The notes under the pieces were generated by a model. That model was given only the letters and a program-made list of their open reading frames with translations, did not search any database and was not told the DNA's origin. Position numbers and translations under genes: made by a program. 64,000 nt of DNA from Nanobdellota archaeon (lineage in GTDB: Archaea > Nanobdellota > Nanobdellia > Pacearchaeales > GW2011-AR1). Position 1 is the first letter of the stretch; every line of letters starts with the position of its first letter. This document shows positions 24,376 to 30,585 of this stretch, in pieces. Where the stretch lies: positions 96,001 through 160,000 of the forward strand of contig JBBSXB010000001.1 in assembly GCA_038046005.1 (NCBI GenBank), written 5' to 3'.

Positions 24376-24459
24376 GCAGGAGTAGCGAAGTGGTCAAACG
24401 CGTAAGACTCAAAATCTTATGGCTTAGTGCCTTCAGAGGTTCGAATCCTCTCTCCTGCA
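24376..24459 (+). tRNA. tRNA-Leu(CAA)
   Basis: GCAGGAG/CTCCTGC-A acceptor, anticodon arm TAAGA-CTCAAAA-TCTTA, long variable arm. Confidence 0.95.
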
Positions 24460-24933: not shown

Positions 24934-25302
24934 ATGAAATCGAAAACAAAAATTAATAAACAATTACAGAGAAAAACAAATTCAAGTTTAGTTGAAACTG
25001 TAAGAGGCGCTGCAAAAAATGAAAAATGGAAAGAAGTTGCAAACATTCTTTCTTATCCTAGAAGACAAAGAACAGAAGTGAATCTTGATAAATTAAGCTC
25101 AGAATCTAAAGTGGGAGAAGTTGTAATTATTCCGGGAAAAGTTCTTTCTAATGGAGAAATAAATAAAAAAATAAAAGTGGCGGCATTTTCTTTTTCACAA
25201 AAAGCCAGGGAAAAGTTATTAAGTGCTGGCTGTCAAGTTTTAAGTATTGAAGAAGAAATTAAAAATAATCCAGAAGCAAAAGGAGTGAAGATTCTAAAAT
25301 GA
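24934..25302 (+). CDS. rpl18e: 50S ribosomal protein L18e
   Basis: VNLDKL, IPGKVLS and VAAFSFS. Confidence 0.96.
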   Translation: MKSKTKINKQLQRKTNSSLVETVRGAAKNEKWKEVANILSYPRRQRTEVNLDKLSSESKVGEVVIIPGKVLSNGEINKKIKVAAFSFSQKAREKLLSAGCQVLSIEEEIKNNPEAKGVKILK

Positions 25303-25688
25303 AAATAATCGATGGAAAAAATGCAGTTCTTGGAAGACTTGGAGCTTATGTCGCCAAAGAGGCATTAAAGGGAGAAGAAATTGTGGTTTTAAATTGTGAA
25401 CAAATTATAATTACTGGGAATAAAAAAGAGATACAGGAAAAGTTTAGGGAAAAAAGAACAAAGATTGGAAGCGGGCAAACAGGGCCAAAACATTCAAGGC
25501 TTTCCCACTTGATTGTAAAAAGGGCAATAAGAGGAATGTTGCCAAGAGCCAGTATGGGACGAGGCAGGGAAGCGTTTAAGAGAATAAAATGCTATTCTGG
25601 GGTTCCAAAAGAATTTGAACAGGCAAAAAAAATATCTCTTGATGAGAAAAAAAGTAAATTTATATTAGTCAAAGAAATTGTAGAATGA
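25299..25688 (+). CDS. rpl13: 50S ribosomal protein L13
   Basis: IIDGKNAVLGRL and VKRAIRGMLP. Confidence 0.97.
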   Translation: MKIIDGKNAVLGRLGAYVAKEALKGEEIVVLNCEQIIITGNKKEIQEKFREKRTKIGSGQTGPKHSRLSHLIVKRAIRGMLPRASMGRGREAFKRIKCYSGVPKEFEQAKKISLDEKKSKFILVKEIVE

Positions 25689-26086
25689 AAAAAATAGTCA
25701 AATCAGGAAAAAGAAAAATGGCAGTTGCAAGAGCAGTGTTAGTAGACGGAACAGGAAAAATTATGATAAATAAAAAAGACTACAAAAATTTACATATTTT
25801 TGACAAACTTAAAATTGAAGAACCTTTGAGAATCTATCAGGCAATGATTGGAGATTTAAATTTTGACGTCGAGATATTTGTAAGAGGTGGTGGAGAAAAG
25901 GGACAAATAGAGGCTGCGAAAATTGCTTTGTCCAGATCGATTATTGAATTTGCAAAATCTGCCGAATTAAGAAAAGCATTCATAGAATATGACAGAAGTT
26001 TACTTGTTGCAGATGTAAGAAGAAAAGAAGCTTACAAACCTGGAGACAGTAAGGCAAGAAGTAAAAGACAAAAGTCGTACAGATAA
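25685..26086 (+). CDS. rps9: 30S ribosomal protein S9
   Basis: SGKRKMAVARA, YDRSLLVAD and QKSYR. Confidence 0.97.
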   Translation: MKKIVKSGKRKMAVARAVLVDGTGKIMINKKDYKNLHIFDKLKIEEPLRIYQAMIGDLNFDVEIFVRGGGEKGQIEAAKIALSRSIIEFAKSAELRKAFIEYDRSLLVADVRRKEAYKPGDSKARSKRQKSYR

Positions 26087-26866
26087 TCAATCTTTTATTT
26101 TATTTATTCCCAGCGTTTCAAATTTATTCTGGACATGATTAAACAGCGTCGAGGAAATCAAAGGTTGATGCACTCCGGGATGTGTTTGATTATCAAATTT
26201 TACTTTTCCCAAATAAGCCTGATTAGTGAGAATTTTCTTTAGGCCGTTTACAGAAAAACCATATTTTTTTGACAGCTGTGTTAAACTTATTTTCTGGTTT
26301 AAAAAATCTTGGAATACTTCATTGACAAGGTAAGAATTTTCTGCTGGAATAAGTTTTTTATCGACCATTTTATAGCCAAATGGTGCCCTCGTTATTGGAT
26401 TTCCATCACGGGCTTTTTTATCCATACTGAACTTTGTTCTTTCCCCAGTAACATTTCTTTCAAATTCTGCAAAAGCAGATATTATATGAAACATTAACTT
26501 TCCTGAAGCGCTTGTTGTTTCAATTTTGTCCTGCAAAGATATGAAATCAACACCCCATTGTTTTAGTTTTTCTATGGTTTCTATTAAATCTCGCAAAGAA
26601 CGGGAAAATCTATCAAGTTTGTATACGAAAATTGCCTGGAATTTGTGATTTCTCGCATCTTCAAGTAACTCAACTATTTCTGGCCTACCTTTGATATCTT
26701 TGGCAGACTTACCTTCGTCTTTGTATATTCTTAGAACTTCGTAACCTAAAGCAGAAGCATAGTTTTTAAGTGCTTCTTCTTGTGCCGACATCGAAATTCC
26801 ATGCTTGACTTGTTCTTCTGTTGAGACTCTTATGTAAATTGCTGCTAGGGGTTTTATTTGATTCAT
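26087..26866 (-). CDS. Serine recombinase: catalytic plus recombinase domain, lacking the Zn-ribbon/coiled-coil domain
   Basis: YIRVSTEEQ (catalytic Ser), DEGKS..RP, KLDRFSR and FAEFER, then PFGY..ILTNQAYLG..HQPLIS. Likely start is the ATG at 26866, overlapping the upstream stop (ATGA). Confidence 0.92.
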   Translation of the reverse strand: MNQIKPLAAIYIRVSTEEQVKHGISMSAQEEALKNYASALGYEVLRIYKDEGKSAKDIKGRPEIVELLEDARNHKFQAIFVYKLDRFSRSLRDLIETIEKLKQWGVDFISLQDKIETTSASGKLMFHIISAFAEFERNVTGERTKFSMDKKARDGNPITRAPFGYKMVDKKLIPAENSYLVNEVFQDFLNQKISLTQLSKKYGFSVNGLKKILTNQAYLGKVKFDNQTHPGVHQPLISSTLFNHVQNKFETLGINKIKD

Positions 26867-27513
26867 GCTTTCACGCCTATCAAAACCGTCCAAACAGGAC
26901 CAACAGATTTAATTTTCAGGTCTTGGCAATAATTTGAAAGAAGAACCTTAATGTTAGTTAAGTCTACTCTATCAAATGAAGCTTTGTCTAAGACAGTTTT
27001 GTCTTCCTTTATAGACATAACCTTAAAGCCCAAGTAGGAATAATATTTTCTTAAAAAGGTTGTTGTTCTTTTGTCTCTTTTCCAAGTGAATATCAAAATT
27101 GTGCCTCCTCTTTTTGTTACTCTTAAAATTTCTCTTAATAGTTTCTCTTTGGAATCAATGCTTCCAATGAGATTATAAGCCGCATAAGTTACGTCAAAAA
27201 AATTGTCTGGAAAAGTCATGTTGAAAGCATCCATGTTTAAAATCTCAACATTAGGAGAGTTTGCAAGATTTTTTCGAGCAATTTTTAATACTGATTCGTT
27301 ATTATCTATGCCAACAAGTTTTTTCACGAACTGAAACAACTTGTCTGCAGGTCTACCTGTCCCACAACCAACATCTAGGACAACTTTGTTTTGGCATATT
27401 TTTTTTAAAAGGTTGAACTCATATTTGAATGACTCTTTAGCCTCCTTTAATGGTTTTTCTACTGCTTTTACTTGCTCTCTGACATACTCTTGACCATAAT
27501 CTCTCTTTTCCAC
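26863..27513 (-). CDS. Class I SAM-dependent methyltransferase (UbiE-like)
   Basis: VLDVGCGTG, FPDNFFDV and EILRVTKRGG; GTG start. Confidence 0.85.
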   Translation of the reverse strand: MEKRDYGQEYVREQVKAVEKPLKEAKESFKYEFNLLKKICQNKVVLDVGCGTGRPADKLFQFVKKLVGIDNNESVLKIARKNLANSPNVEILNMDAFNMTFPDNFFDVTYAAYNLIGSIDSKEKLLREILRVTKRGGTILIFTWKRDKRTTTFLRKYYSYLGFKVMSIKEDKTVLDKASFDRVDLTNIKVLLSNYCQDLKIKSVGPVWTVLIGVKA

Positions 27514-27521
27514 ATACTTAT

Positions 27522-27580
27522 TTGTGCACTTAGGTTTAAAAAGTTATTGTGCACGTGGATTTAGGACACCCTAAGTGCGC
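27522..27580. repeat. Half-sites of the recombinase-associated repeat, bracketing the operon promoter
   Basis: TTGTGCACTTAGGTT (27522-36) and TTGTGCAC...TTAGG-ACAC-CCTAAGTGC (27547-78); GCACTTAGG and CCTAAGTGC are inverted. Confidence 0.75.
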
Positions 27581-27682
27581 GTTTTTAACGAGGGAAATGT
27601 GGTTTTTGAGGATTTTGGGAGTAATTTTATGAACTAAGATAAGCAAAGTGAAGAGAAGAAATATCTAAATAGCGTAAATAGA

Positions 27683-27988
27683 TTATTCTGCTTCTTTAGA
27701 GATTACTTTAACTAAGTCATATCTTGAAGAACTTGCGTCAGCTGGCGGATTTTTAATTTTTGTTATTTTTACTTCAAGAACATATGAATATCCTTCTTCA
27801 TAATCAAATCCATCAATAGAATTATAGAAACGTTCCCCATTCACTATCAAACACTTCATTGGGACTCCACCAACACAATCAACCTTATTTGGACCAATAG
27901 TAATGGTTTCAGTACTAGGAAAAGTTGTAAAGAGTAGTATTATTATAAAAATTATAATGTAAAACCACCATTTTTTTAGTAAATTCAT
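27683..27988 (-). CDS. DUF4377-like membrane-anchored/secreted protein
   Basis: N-terminal TM, CVGGVPMKCL, FYNSIDGFDYEEGYSY.L.V and PPADASS..Y.L. Confidence 0.8.
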   Translation of the reverse strand: MNLLKKWWFYIIIFIIILLFTTFPSTETITIGPNKVDCVGGVPMKCLIVNGERFYNSIDGFDYEEGYSYVLEVKITKIKNPPADASSSRYDLVKVISKEAE

Positions 27989-28050
27989 AATTAGTTTAAT
28001 AAAACAGAGTTTAAAATATTTCCCCTAAAATTTTCCAATTTCTTTTGTGA

Positions 28051-28083
28051 CCTGCCATGGTTGTGCACTTAGGTTGGCTAAGT
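28051..28083 (+). repeat. 33-bp direct repeat copy 1, candidate recombination site
   Basis: CCTGCCATGGTTGTGCACTTAGGTTGGCTAAGT; internal inverted repeat CACTTAG-N5-CTAAGT(G). Confidence 0.9.
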
Positions 28084-28163
28084 GAATACGCAAAATACAG
28101 AGATATTAGAAAAAAAATTGAAATAAGTTTAAAGAAAAAATAAAATTAAAGATCGAACTGGAA

Positions 28164-28331
28164 CTATTTCTTTCTCGATTGATAGTTTCTCATCAATTTG
28201 CCTACACCTACAATGAGCCAAGCCAAAGCAATTAGCCATGCGGAAAGTGTTATACCAATATCAAGGCCAATAAGTGGTAGTATAAGTAAAACACCGACTA
28301 ATGTGACAAGCCAAGCTGTTACCTTTGCCAT
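28164..28331 (-). CDS. 55-aa two-helix hydrophobic protein (not in ORF track)
   Basis: MAKVTAWLVTLVGVLLILPLIGLDIGITLSAWLIALAWLIVGVGKLMRNYQSRKK. AGGAGGG SD and TTATAA upstream; paralog at 50627-50773. Confidence 0.8.
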   Translation of the reverse strand: MAKVTAWLVTLVGVLLILPLIGLDIGITLSAWLIALAWLIVGVGKLMRNYQSRKK

Positions 28332-28516
28332 TTCAACCCTCCTTTGATATACCCTAAAGAAAACAAGGGTTATAAGGTTTTTGCTAGCTTGAAGATTAGA
28401 GATTCAATTGTGTTATTAATTTGTAAAACATACAATTAATGCGGCGAGAGTTGGAATATTCTGATAACAATAATCTTACAAATTTCGCGCCATTTTTCGA
28501 CATCAATCTCTTTAGG

Positions 28517-28549
28517 CCTGCCACAGTTGTGCACTTAGGTTGGCTAAGT
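28517..28549 (+). repeat. 33-bp direct repeat copy 2
   Basis: CCTGCCACAGTTGTGCACTTAGGTTGGCTAAGT, 31/33 identical to 28051-28083. Confidence 0.9.
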
Positions 28550-28582
28550 ATATGCTGAGCTAGTTAAGACATGTAGAAAATG

Positions 28583-28712
28583 GTTGTTTAAACATGTGTT
28601 TTTGTGTTTAATCGACGGAAAAATTGATTAGAAATCGCTAAGAAAAACAGGTGTTGATTAGGGTGTTTGTCCGTTTAAACAGTGTTTATGGTTGTTTTAA
28701 ACAGCTGTTTTG
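28583..28712. repeat. Cluster of AAACA-N2-TGTTT palindromic boxes
   Basis: 28590 AAACATGTGTTT, 28645 AAACAGGTGTTG, 28677 AAACAGTGTTT and 28699 AAACAGCTGTTT. Confidence 0.7.
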
Positions 28713-28872
28713 CCATTAAAAATAGGGAAAAACATCATATTTTAAGACAAAAACATGCTAAAAAATAAATGAATTTCCCTCCAAAAAATTGGGTGCGAGA
28801 TAGATAAAAATTGAGGTAAGATGAAATTTACGACGTAAAAAAAGAAATATTTATAAAGGTTGAAAATCTAAA

Positions 28873-29511
28873 TTGAGTATGTTTGATTGGTTCTTTAAAA
28901 AAAGAGAGAAAAAAGAGTTAAAACACATAGAAGAAGATACAAAAAAGGGTTTTGAAAGTGTCAAAAAAGATATAACAGCTGTAATAGGATGGATCAAACA
29001 CCTAGATTCTGAGAAAAATCTGCAACAAAAAGAGATTGAAGACATAAAAGAGGATTTGTCGACGGTAAAAAATGACATTGAAAGCATTAAAAATATCATA
29101 ACTATGATGAATGAATTAAAACCTCAAGGAGTGTTTAAAACAAACAGACAGGTGTTTAAAGAACAAACACCTGTTTATGCTGTTCAAACAGTTGACCAAA
29201 CAGGCGTTCAAACACCAAATTTAAACCAATTTTCAGTAACTGAAAGAGCAATTCTATGGATTCTCTTAAACTCAGAAATGAAACTGGGATATGAAGATCT
29301 AGCTGCAATGTTGGGAAAAGAAAAGTCCACCATAAGGGGGCAGATAAATAGTATAAAACAAAAAAGTGAAAATTTGATAAGTGAAATTACTGAAAAAAAT
29401 GGAAAAAAGAGAGTATATATAAGTGAAGAAATGAGGGAAAAAATGCTGAAAAAGTCAAAAGTGAGAGTTGGAAATAAGAAAAAAACTGAGAAAAAAGAAG
29501 AAAAAGTCTGA
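28873..29511 (+). CDS. Coiled-coil plus C-terminal winged-helix protein (start may be 28879)
   Basis: Heptad-rich N-half, repeat-encoded linker, and FSVTERAILWILL..YEDLAAMLGKEKSTIRGQINSIK..KNGKKRVY HTH/wing. Confidence 0.75.
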   Translation: MSMFDWFFKKREKKELKHIEEDTKKGFESVKKDITAVIGWIKHLDSEKNLQQKEIEDIKEDLSTVKNDIESIKNIITMMNELKPQGVFKTNRQVFKEQTPVYAVQTVDQTGVQTPNLNQFSVTERAILWILLNSEMKLGYEDLAAMLGKEKSTIRGQINSIKQKSENLISEITEKNGKKRVYISEEMREKMLKKSKVRVGNKKKTEKKEEKV

Positions 29512-29853: not shown

Positions 29854-30585
29854 TTACAATTCTCTAAGTTTTAATATTGTTTGAAGGGAGGCAATTTTCT
29901 TTAAGCCGGCTGAAACGTTTAAATGGACATTCTTATTGTTAAGTTTGATTTTATCGACGGGAATTCCCTTTGAGATGATCTTACTGATATAATCTCTTAT
30001 GGAGCTTTCAGTAAGGTTAAGCTTCAGGGCAATGGCCTTATAATCAGCATATCCTTGCTCTTCCTCTAGCTGGTATAATGTTGAAAATACTAAAATTTCC
30101 TTTTCTGTAAGCTTCTTGAATTTCAGCCTTATTTCTTTTTTTAAGGTATCTAAAGATTCAAGTATTTTGGAGGCATCGTGAAGGGTAGTTTTGGGAATCT
30201 CTAAAGGAAAAATCAAGCTATTTTGTGTCTGTTGGTCTGTCTGTTGGTCTGTCTGTCTGTCTGCTGGAACCCCATCATTTCCTATGGAAATAGCTTGATT
30301 TTGGGGTTTTAAAGCCTTAAAAGACTCATTATCTGCTGGGCTTTGTGTTGAGGTTGTCTTATTCTCCAAACTATGTGATGGAGTTAAAAAAGTTGAATTT
30401 TGAAGTATTTTAGAAGAAATAGAAATTAATTCCCTGTTTAAATCCTTTAACTCTCTAACCTCTTCCCCTAAATTGGAAAGTTTCCAATTCAACTCCACTA
30501 GGTTGGTTTTTAGAGAATTTAACTCGTAACTAAGAGAAGAGATGTCTTGTTTAACTTTTTGAAAGGCCTCTTTTATCTCATCCAT
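29854..30585 (-). CDS. Coiled-coil plus C-terminal winged-helix protein
   Basis: Heptad N-terminus, GNDGVPADRQTDQQTDQQT linker, and LTEKEILVFSTLY..YKAIALKLNLTESSIRDYISKIISKG HTH. Confidence 0.75.
   Translation of the reverse strand: MDEIKEAFQKVKQDISSLSYELNSLKTNLVELNWKLSNLGEEVRELKDLNRELISISSKILQNSTFLTPSHSLENKTTSTQSPADNESFKALKPQNQAISIGNDGVPADRQTDQQTDQQTQNSLIFPLEIPKTTLHDASKILESLDTLKKEIRLKFKKLTEKEILVFSTLYQLEEEQGYADYKAIALKLNLTESSIRDYISKIISKGIPVDKIKLNNKNVHLNVSAGLKKIASLQTILKLREL
30226..30267. repeat. Intragenic TGTCTG(T/C)TGG / GTCT tandem repeats
   Basis: TGTCTGTTGG at 30226 and 30238, TGTCTGCTGG at 30258, with a related TATCTGCTGG at 30330. Confidence 0.7.

Follow-up and report, generated by a model that had tools for sequence, protein, structure and literature searches.

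The 64,000-nucleotide (nt) stretch of DNA analysed here (hereafter the window; positions 96,001 to 160,000 of contig JBBSXB010000001.1 in assembly GCA_038046005.1, from a Nanobdellota archaeon) encodes a short serine recombinase beside a small array of single genes that are separated by copies of a roughly 25-bp dyad. The dyads are confined to this locus, share one orientation, recur at the same chromosomal position in related genomes and enclose genes that differ even within one genus. We propose, with moderate confidence, that the array is a site-specific gene-cassette platform operated by the serine recombinase, which would also control its own promoter.

Two 33-bp direct repeats, 466 bp apart and identical at 31 of 33 positions, share a 23-nt core that is the same in both copies. 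Each overlaps a 25-bp dyad core, giving the elements that we call sites B and C; the dyad consists of 7-nt perfect arms around a 5-nt spacer. Two further partial sites bracket a TATA-like run just upstream of the start of a methyltransferase gene, the first gene of the recombinase operon, and together make up the composite A region. An earlier, sequence-only reading of the window had described both the repeats and the bracketing partial sites, and had noted that the motif overlaps the recombinase's own putative promoter; all of this we recover. The sites are as follows.

27524 to 27580, plus strand: composite A region over the operon promoter, with a left-arm motif (27524-27536), the TATA-like run (27535-27542) and a second dyad (27549-27580)
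27629 to 27653, plus strand: degenerate dyad copy that borders the DUF4377 cassette on the left, equal to site B at 16/25 positions by eye
28051 to 28087, plus strand: site B, a 33-bp repeat (28051-28083) with a 25-bp dyad core (28063-28087)
28517 to 28553, plus strand: site C, a 33-bp repeat (28517-28549) with a 25-bp dyad core (28529-28553)

These sequences are specific to the locus. Allowing up to three mismatches, the window contains no third copy of the 23-nt core, and 100 shuffles yielded no match at all. By chance, 0.18 copies of the 12-mer TGTGCACTTAGG would be expected in the window, and there are three. In the genome to which the window belongs (G000; 874,611 bp in 15 contigs, 98% complete) it likewise occurs three times, always at this locus, and its reversed control not at all. 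Scanning the same genome with a 13-mer and up to two mismatches gave four matches at the locus and five weaker ones elsewhere, none of which has a matching right arm. An Rfam search over 25500-29500 gave no match.

The link between motif and recombinase extends to related genomes. In 61 of these we counted 21 exact matches to the 13-mer, compared with one to its reversed control. Sixteen are on the same contig as the recombinase module and no more than 4 kb from it; the remaining five come from two fragmented assemblies in which the module is at a contig end, and are on different contigs from it. The motif is thus tied to the recombinase; a genome-wide scatter, which would have counted against the sequence-only reading, is not seen. 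With up to two mismatches, the 13-mer is present in the interval between the recombinase and the gene orf212 in 44 of 53 loci. For a fuller census we added metagenome loci and removed near-duplicates, reducing 81 loci to 69 non-redundant ones, and found sites in 56 of these, 122 in the forward and 6 in the reverse orientation. An interval holds one to four copies of the dyad, which are of two types. A-type sites (39 sites in 39 loci) are composite: a left arm and a TATA box come first, then a second outer hexamer and, after a gap of 6 nt, an inner dyad. Three arm-like elements are kept in this way around the TATA run in all 39 non-redundant loci, and the first gene, by eye, usually starts some 10-25 nt to the left of the composite. 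The B type (83 sites in 49 loci) is a plain dyad of about 25 bp.

Directly to the left of many B-type sites, in different genera, we also observed a short G+C-rich element, often a small palindrome after a T-run. Examples are found at 28051-28058 and 28517-28524 of the window and in loci L073, L078 and L118; the left flank of a B-type site is common to two congeners over about 60 bp. This element may be the site of an accessory protein.

The recombinase gene is also stable in position. We detected it in 64 of 301 searched genomes of this Nanoarchaeota (DPANN) family (E <= 1e-60), and the gene order in eleven wide loci is rps4-rps11-rpoD-rpl18e-rpl13-rps9, recombinase, variable interval, orf212-orf243-orf115-orf138-orf89. 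The gap between the recombinase and orf212 ranges from 502 to 3375 bp; in 48 of 53 loci orf212 is on the same retrieved piece. The recombinase is also found outside the family, in other families of the order, at 47-61% identity and again beside orf212, orf243 and orf115; rps9 adjoins it in one of the four other-family loci (G060). Gene and sites are syntenic across dozens of genera. The recombinase is therefore a fixed chromosomal gene between the rps9 operon and orf212, a conserved gene with a winged helix-turn-helix (wHTH) region, and the syntenic flanks contain no phage, plasmid or transposase genes, in keeping with the earlier remark that no phage or transposon genes are nearby.

26087 to 26866, minus strand: short serine recombinase, 259 aa from the ATG at 26866; the open reading frame (ORF) is open to a TTG at 26893, which would give 268 aa

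The recombinase matches two Pfam families, Resolvase (PF00239, 1.4e-42) and Recombinase (PF07508, 1.1e-7), and no other at E <= 0.01. Its sequence matches in the PDB include the catalytic domain of TP901-1 (1.6e-25) and, over aa 159-264, the recombinase domain (RD) of the A118 integrase (4kis). In an AlphaFold model (mean predicted local distance difference test score, pLDDT, 81), the catalytic domain is followed by a long αE helix (121-153) and then by a mixed α/β domain; the model's best Foldseek matches are large serine integrases, with the RD aligning to 6dnw at 2.6 Å over 125 columns. The C-terminal 100 aa are thus an integrase-type RD and not a helix-turn-helix (HTH) of about 40 aa. The protein ends with this RD: neither Pfam (E <= 0.01) nor the AlphaFold model shows a Zn-ribbon or coiled-coil, and the PDB matches agree, as does the sequence-only reading.

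That reading had also called the enzyme truncated, a description that our analysis does not support. The best 120 of 2041 database relatives (E <= 1e-10) are all 253-273 aa long, and orthologs down to 41% identity share the recombinase's end point, so the enzyme is not truncated; judging by these relatives, it is a complete, conserved short form of "catalytic domain + RD" in a widespread family. The same best 120 are annotated merely as "recombinase family protein". In NCBIfam, the recombinase matches best the initial ~240 residues of CcrB, CcrC and XisF, with scores well short of every cut-off. The IS607 model scores 37.8 bits against a cut-off of 110, and the catalytic domain is N-terminal, with no MerR-like HTH ahead of it as in the IS607-type serine transposase, which is usually accompanied by TnpB. 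Five residues (R13, S15, D85, R86 and R89 in the 259-aa numbering) do not vary among 26 sequences that reach down to 41% identity; we take them to correspond to the catalytic residues of gamma-delta resolvase, and the recombinase looks active.

What varies is the DNA between the sites. The genes of the interval in the window, together with its right border, are listed below; the minus-strand calls, and that of the Resolvase + Recombinase protein on the same strand, agree with those of the sequence-only reading.

26863 to 27513, minus strand: S-adenosylmethionine-dependent methyltransferase in "slot 1", the first gene of the recombinase operon (Methyltransf_11, 1e-20), its stop codon overlapping the recombinase ATG
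27683 to 27988, minus strand: DUF4377 cassette protein, 101 aa with an N-terminal hydrophobic segment (Pfam DUF4377, 4.6e-24)
28164 to 28331, minus strand: 55-aa hydrophobic cassette protein with no Pfam match, its ORF kept in G001 (91% aa identity) and L125
28873 to 29511, plus strand: orf212, the divergent right-border neighbor, 212 aa with a coiled-coil and a C-terminal wHTH-like region

The usual map of a locus runs from the recombinase through one or more optional slot 1 genes to the A region, then through one to three single genes, with a B-type site after each, to the divergent orf212. Clustering of 234 interval ORFs (>= 40 aa, some of the short ones surely spurious) gave 141 clusters, 111 of them singletons. 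Turnover is seen among three congeners (the window, G001/L126 and L125), whose recombinases are 90-95% identical. Common to all three are the recombinase, the A block, site B, the 55-aa gene, site C and the orf212 side, and the A region is nearly identical despite different genes on either side of it. The DNA in slot 1, and that between the degenerate site and site B, is unrelated: homology stops inside the degenerate copy (27629-27653) and resumes at the site blocks. Slot 1 contains the methyltransferase gene in the window, 230-aa and 75-aa ORFs in G001 and a 176-aa ORF in L125, and the second slot contains, respectively, the DUF4377 gene, a 145-aa ORF and a 96-aa ORF. In a second genus, G006 and G218 differ in slot 1 (a HAD hydrolase in one, none in the other) and in the genes between the A block and site B. 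Same-genus loci have different maps in all seven genera compared. At E <= 1e-5, the DUF4377 gene is missing from all 300 other genomes searched in the family, and the best database relatives of its product are about 50% identical. Slot 1, which lies between the recombinase and its promoter, is itself variable, a point absent from the sequence-only reading. That reading's expectation for rps9-adjacent orthologs is borne out: the same motif array is found there, and cassette number and content vary, even between congeners.

Two observations concern the right border. A family search with orf212 gave a single weak match, Sta1. The stretch from the last B-type site to the orf212 start is occupied by a second palindromic repeat, centered on GTTTAAAC with flanking CAG/CTG (28583-28735), which recurs within the orf212 coding region (29132-29190). 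This palindrome is kept upstream of orf212 in several genera (seen in L116, L117, L118, L160, L026 and L036/L077), and may be the operator of the wHTH protein orf212 itself. Farther right, a tandem GTCTGT-type repeat at 30227-30266 lies in orf243 (minus strand), where it encodes a Q/T/D-rich low-complexity linker.

The B-type sites of one locus resemble each other more than those of different loci. Core similarity is 0.79 within a locus versus 0.74 between loci, and that of the left flanks is 0.43 versus 0.36; none of 2000 label permutations reached the observed value in either case, in a statistic that ignores kinship among genomes. Moreover, both B-type sites of each of the three congeners carry the same central pair, which differs by genome (TT, CT and TC). 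These similarities are hints that B-type sites may behave like recombining partners.

A mechanism can be proposed from these elements. In an A118-family integrase-DNA structure, the RD contacts 13 bp of the half-site and the Zn-ribbon reads positions 16-24 (PMC3783163). Recombinase dimers would bind the dyads through the RD; a dyad arm of about 12 bp fits the 13-bp footprint of the RD in solved integrase-DNA complexes. At the A region, which wraps the TATA box of its own operon, the enzyme would act as its own repressor, in the manner of resolvases at res. Crossover would take place at the B-type sites, which are direct repeats and enclose a single gene per pair. An enzyme with no coiled-coil would not distinguish attP from attB, so that identical sites could recombine and one gene would be excised as a circle with one site; in the reverse reaction, such a circle would insert at any resident site. 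The expected outcome is a short cassette array in the chromosome, with a content that changes from species to species.

Several observations weigh against this cassette platform. Slot 1 has been replaced without any flanking B-type site, a site-independent change. Turnover is modest, with arrays of at most about three cassettes; some interval genes recur in many genera and seem to be inherited vertically (25 loci have a ~93-aa membrane protein and 21 have a HAD hydrolase), and one shared cassette family is strongly diverged. Breakpoints at conserved blocks are weak evidence, as homologous recombination would also be expected to produce them. The excess of within-locus similarity is small, and matching centers are found in only some loci. 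The odd-numbered center of the dyad is more like a tyrosine-recombinase core than a serine-recombinase site with its central dinucleotide, and the same dyads are present in genomes with a XerA-type enzyme (see below). It is possible that the conserved wHTH neighbor, instead of the recombinase, is the site-binding protein. Finally, no recombination product was seen in the assembled contigs of four runs that we compared with the window; one contig (X1) matches 25000-29247 without difference, with the window form intact.

Candidate signs of recent movement were set aside. Two joints in X5 (26855>27519 and 27608>28494) belong to a co-occurring congener that is 85-90% identical, and a short joint beginning at 28549 was dropped, having only 25 letters on one side. 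Recent horizontal spread of one cassette family was rejected on the strong divergence of its 96-aa (L125) and 98-aa (L073) members. The window strain and the 85-90% identical congener, which has different cassettes, occur together in one groundwater sample (X5/X6) at similar depth, about 14-15 versus 17.

The sites are also found beside a different recombinase. Many genomes of the family match only the C-terminal half of the recombinase query. These genomes encode, at the same locus, a 210-252-aa fusion of an HNH-endonuclease domain to an RD that is 72% identical to the window RD over 116 aa; we know of no description of this HNH-RD fusion. Just upstream lies the gene for a 275-aa tyrosine recombinase, which scores 246.7 bits with the NCBI archaeal XerA model (cut-off 220), and a HAD gene often precedes it.

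L116:3923-5384 and L160:3098-5357: sister-genome operon of HAD hydrolase, XerA-type tyrosine recombinase and HNH-RD fusion

The XerA/HNH-RD loci contain one to four B-type sites, in the same orientation and near orf212, so that RD and sites travel together; no A-type composite was seen in the six such loci examined. In most sister genomes that lack the serine recombinase, this locus contains these same sites, a finding that the sequence-only reading did not anticipate. The sites are therefore not exclusive to the serine enzyme. Judged from these sequences, the constant parts across the family are the sites and the RD.

The two enzymes seldom occur together. By hand tally, the locus-type tyrosine enzyme (E <= 1e-100) is present in 119 of 237 genomes without the serine recombinase versus 1 of 64 with it, an anti-correlation that is overstated by the non-independence of related genomes. 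In 37 of the 64 there is no match to the locus-type enzyme at E <= 1e-30. A strong match to the XerA model persists elsewhere in 26 of the 64, and many genomes with the locus enzyme have two to four such matches, so the XerA-type enzyme of the locus is an extra paralog. We accordingly rejected the idea that the serine enzyme generally replaces the only Xer of a genome. In G000 we found neither a match to the archaeal XerA model (E <= 1e-20) nor a homolog of the sister locus enzyme (E <= 1e-3); its only two PF00589 matches are weak (36-38 bits) and lie elsewhere. These two phage-integrase matches are at C4:42283-42762 and C11:30137-30643, in ORFs of 373 and 405 aa. The serine recombinase and a strong locus-type Xer gene are both present in L168 (G317:C6) and L169 (G066:C2), 4 kb and 10 kb apart, respectively. 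In G317 the serine recombinase adjoins the sites, and the Xer-type gene, with a 229-aa HAD-sized neighbor, adjoins rps9; no ORF of at least 90 aa lies between rps9 and the Xer-type gene, so HNH-RD is apparently absent, although no direct search for it was made.

As a tentative extension of the cassette platform, which we put forward as possible and well short of probable, the dyad site and the RD may define the platform and the catalytic machinery may be exchanged. The same sites would then be served by two unrelated chemistries, a XerA-type enzyme with HNH-RD or a serine catalytic domain-RD protein, and in genomes such as G000 the serine enzyme may stand in for a missing Xer.

The dyads could instead be an operator array only, through which an RD-bearing or wHTH protein controls the small genes, with turnover arising by ordinary homologous or illegitimate recombination at a permissive spot. 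This would account for the layout of 39 loci, in which the A region overlaps the TATA box and keeps its distance to the start codon of the first gene, for the retention of sites without a serine catalytic domain in HNH-RD genomes and for the exchange of slot 1 without flanking sites. However, B-type sites keep no fixed distance to the genes (in the window they precede the two start codons by 63 nt and 186 nt), and the one-sided orientation of 122 to 6 would matter much less to a palindromic operator than it does to recombination. A purely regulatory protein would have no need of catalytic residues that are invariant to 41% identity, and the different palindrome upstream of the wHTH gene is a better candidate for the site of the wHTH protein. 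We consider an operator array unlikely.

A dif-like resolution site fares a little worse, and we doubt it. Here, the XerA-type enzyme would act at the dyads in most of the family, the serine enzyme would have taken over in genomes like that of the window, and the single genes would be integrated modules like IMEX elements or the dif modules of Acinetobacter. Consistent with such a site are the operon of a XerA-type enzyme with HNH-RD at the same locus and the same sites, the absence of both XerA-type gene and locus-enzyme homolog from G000 and the near mutual exclusion of the two enzymes. The geometry of arms around a 5-6-bp spacer also resembles dif, which has 11-bp arms and a 6-bp spacer as given in PMC2958812. 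Against it, the locus enzyme is the extra paralog of genomes that can keep a XerA-model match elsewhere, and identical direct repeats of a dimer-resolution site would delete the intervening DNA. Moreover, the cumulative GC skew of contig C1 rises straight through the locus with no turn there, skew being a weak guide to the terminus in archaea.

A remnant of an integrated mobile element, with the two 33-mers as attL and attR, or a chance pair of repeats, is very improbable: direct repeats beside a recombinase are the usual mark of an integrated element, but the synteny of gene and sites in dozens of genera, with ribosomal-protein genes on one side, contradicts this origin, the flanks lack phage, plasmid and transposase genes, the repeats are merely 466 bp apart, and the 100 shuffles without a match argue against chance. 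Integration linked to a tRNA gene was likewise rejected, as no tRNA lies in or beside the interval and the nearest, tRNA-Leu, is at 24376-24459.

If the cassette-platform reading is true, its interest lies first in the chemistry. To our knowledge, gene-cassette platforms known so far rely on tyrosine recombinases, IntI in integrons and Xer in dif modules. A serine recombinase working on a conserved array in the chromosome would add an independent third solution. Tiny DPANN genomes are thought to depend on gene exchange. The enzyme would also be a natural "minimal" serine integrase, a catalytic domain plus RD with identical 25-bp candidate sites, and as such a compact candidate for studying the origin of serine-integrase directionality and possibly a small recombinase tool. 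The apparent swap between a serine enzyme and a tyrosine-plus-HNH system on the same sites would, if true, be a rare and testable case of recombinase replacement. In the literature on serine recombinases, gene cassettes and integrons in archaea, DPANN and Pacearchaeota we found no description of this system, although published genome lists of archaeal integrons might include relatives.

Among known systems, the recombinase is closest to the large serine integrases (A118/LI, TP901-1, phiC31, Bxb1 and SPbeta, with CcrA/B/C and XisF), with which it shares the catalytic domain, αE and RD by sequence and fold. It differs in its length of 259 aa, not about 450-700, without Zn-ribbon or coiled-coil; in its candidate sites, which are identical and about 25 bp long (B and C share the 23-nt core) instead of distinct 40-50-bp attP and attB; and in being a fixed chromosomal gene that is not part of a phage or other element. 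With the small resolvases (Tn3, gamma-delta, Sin) and their res sites it shares the serine catalytic core and identical directly repeated candidate sites; the composite region over its own promoter may be a further likeness, and suggests autoregulation of the kind that resolvases exert at res. Unlike theirs and that of the invertases Hin and Gin, its DNA-binding domain is an integrase-type RD and not a 40-aa HTH, and the locus has one A region with several simple sites and neither a transposase nor a plasmid context.

The published archaeal integrons, according to PMC9668308, are canonical IntI/attC systems. The locus described here resembles an integron in its fixed recombinase gene, its promoter-linked site and its array of mostly single-gene, co-oriented cassettes that vary between relatives. 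However, IntI is a tyrosine recombinase with an extra domain whereas the window enzyme is a serine recombinase, and attC sites are folded single strands of variable sequence whereas the sites here are short, probably double-stranded dyads of conserved sequence. The cassettes here also point towards the recombinase, in arrays of no more than about three.

Small gene modules bounded by short dyads for a host recombinase are likewise a feature of Xer/dif and of the dif modules of Acinetobacter plasmids, as described in PMC6449649 and PMC13141974. With archaeal XerA/dif (PMC2958812) there is a further likeness: sister genomes pair these very sites with a XerA-type enzyme. In contrast, G000 has no XerA-type gene and carries a serine enzyme instead, and all sites in its array point in the same direction. 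Compared with dif itself, a single-copy site near the terminus, the sites here have arms, but the arms are 7 nt and perfect around a 5-nt spacer, the sites come in three or four copies and there is no skew turn. For the HNH-RD partner we know of no counterpart in Xer systems. Overall, the system described here would work like an integron or an array of dif modules and may be regulated like a resolvase at res; judged by its types of recombinase and site, it is a member of none of these classes.

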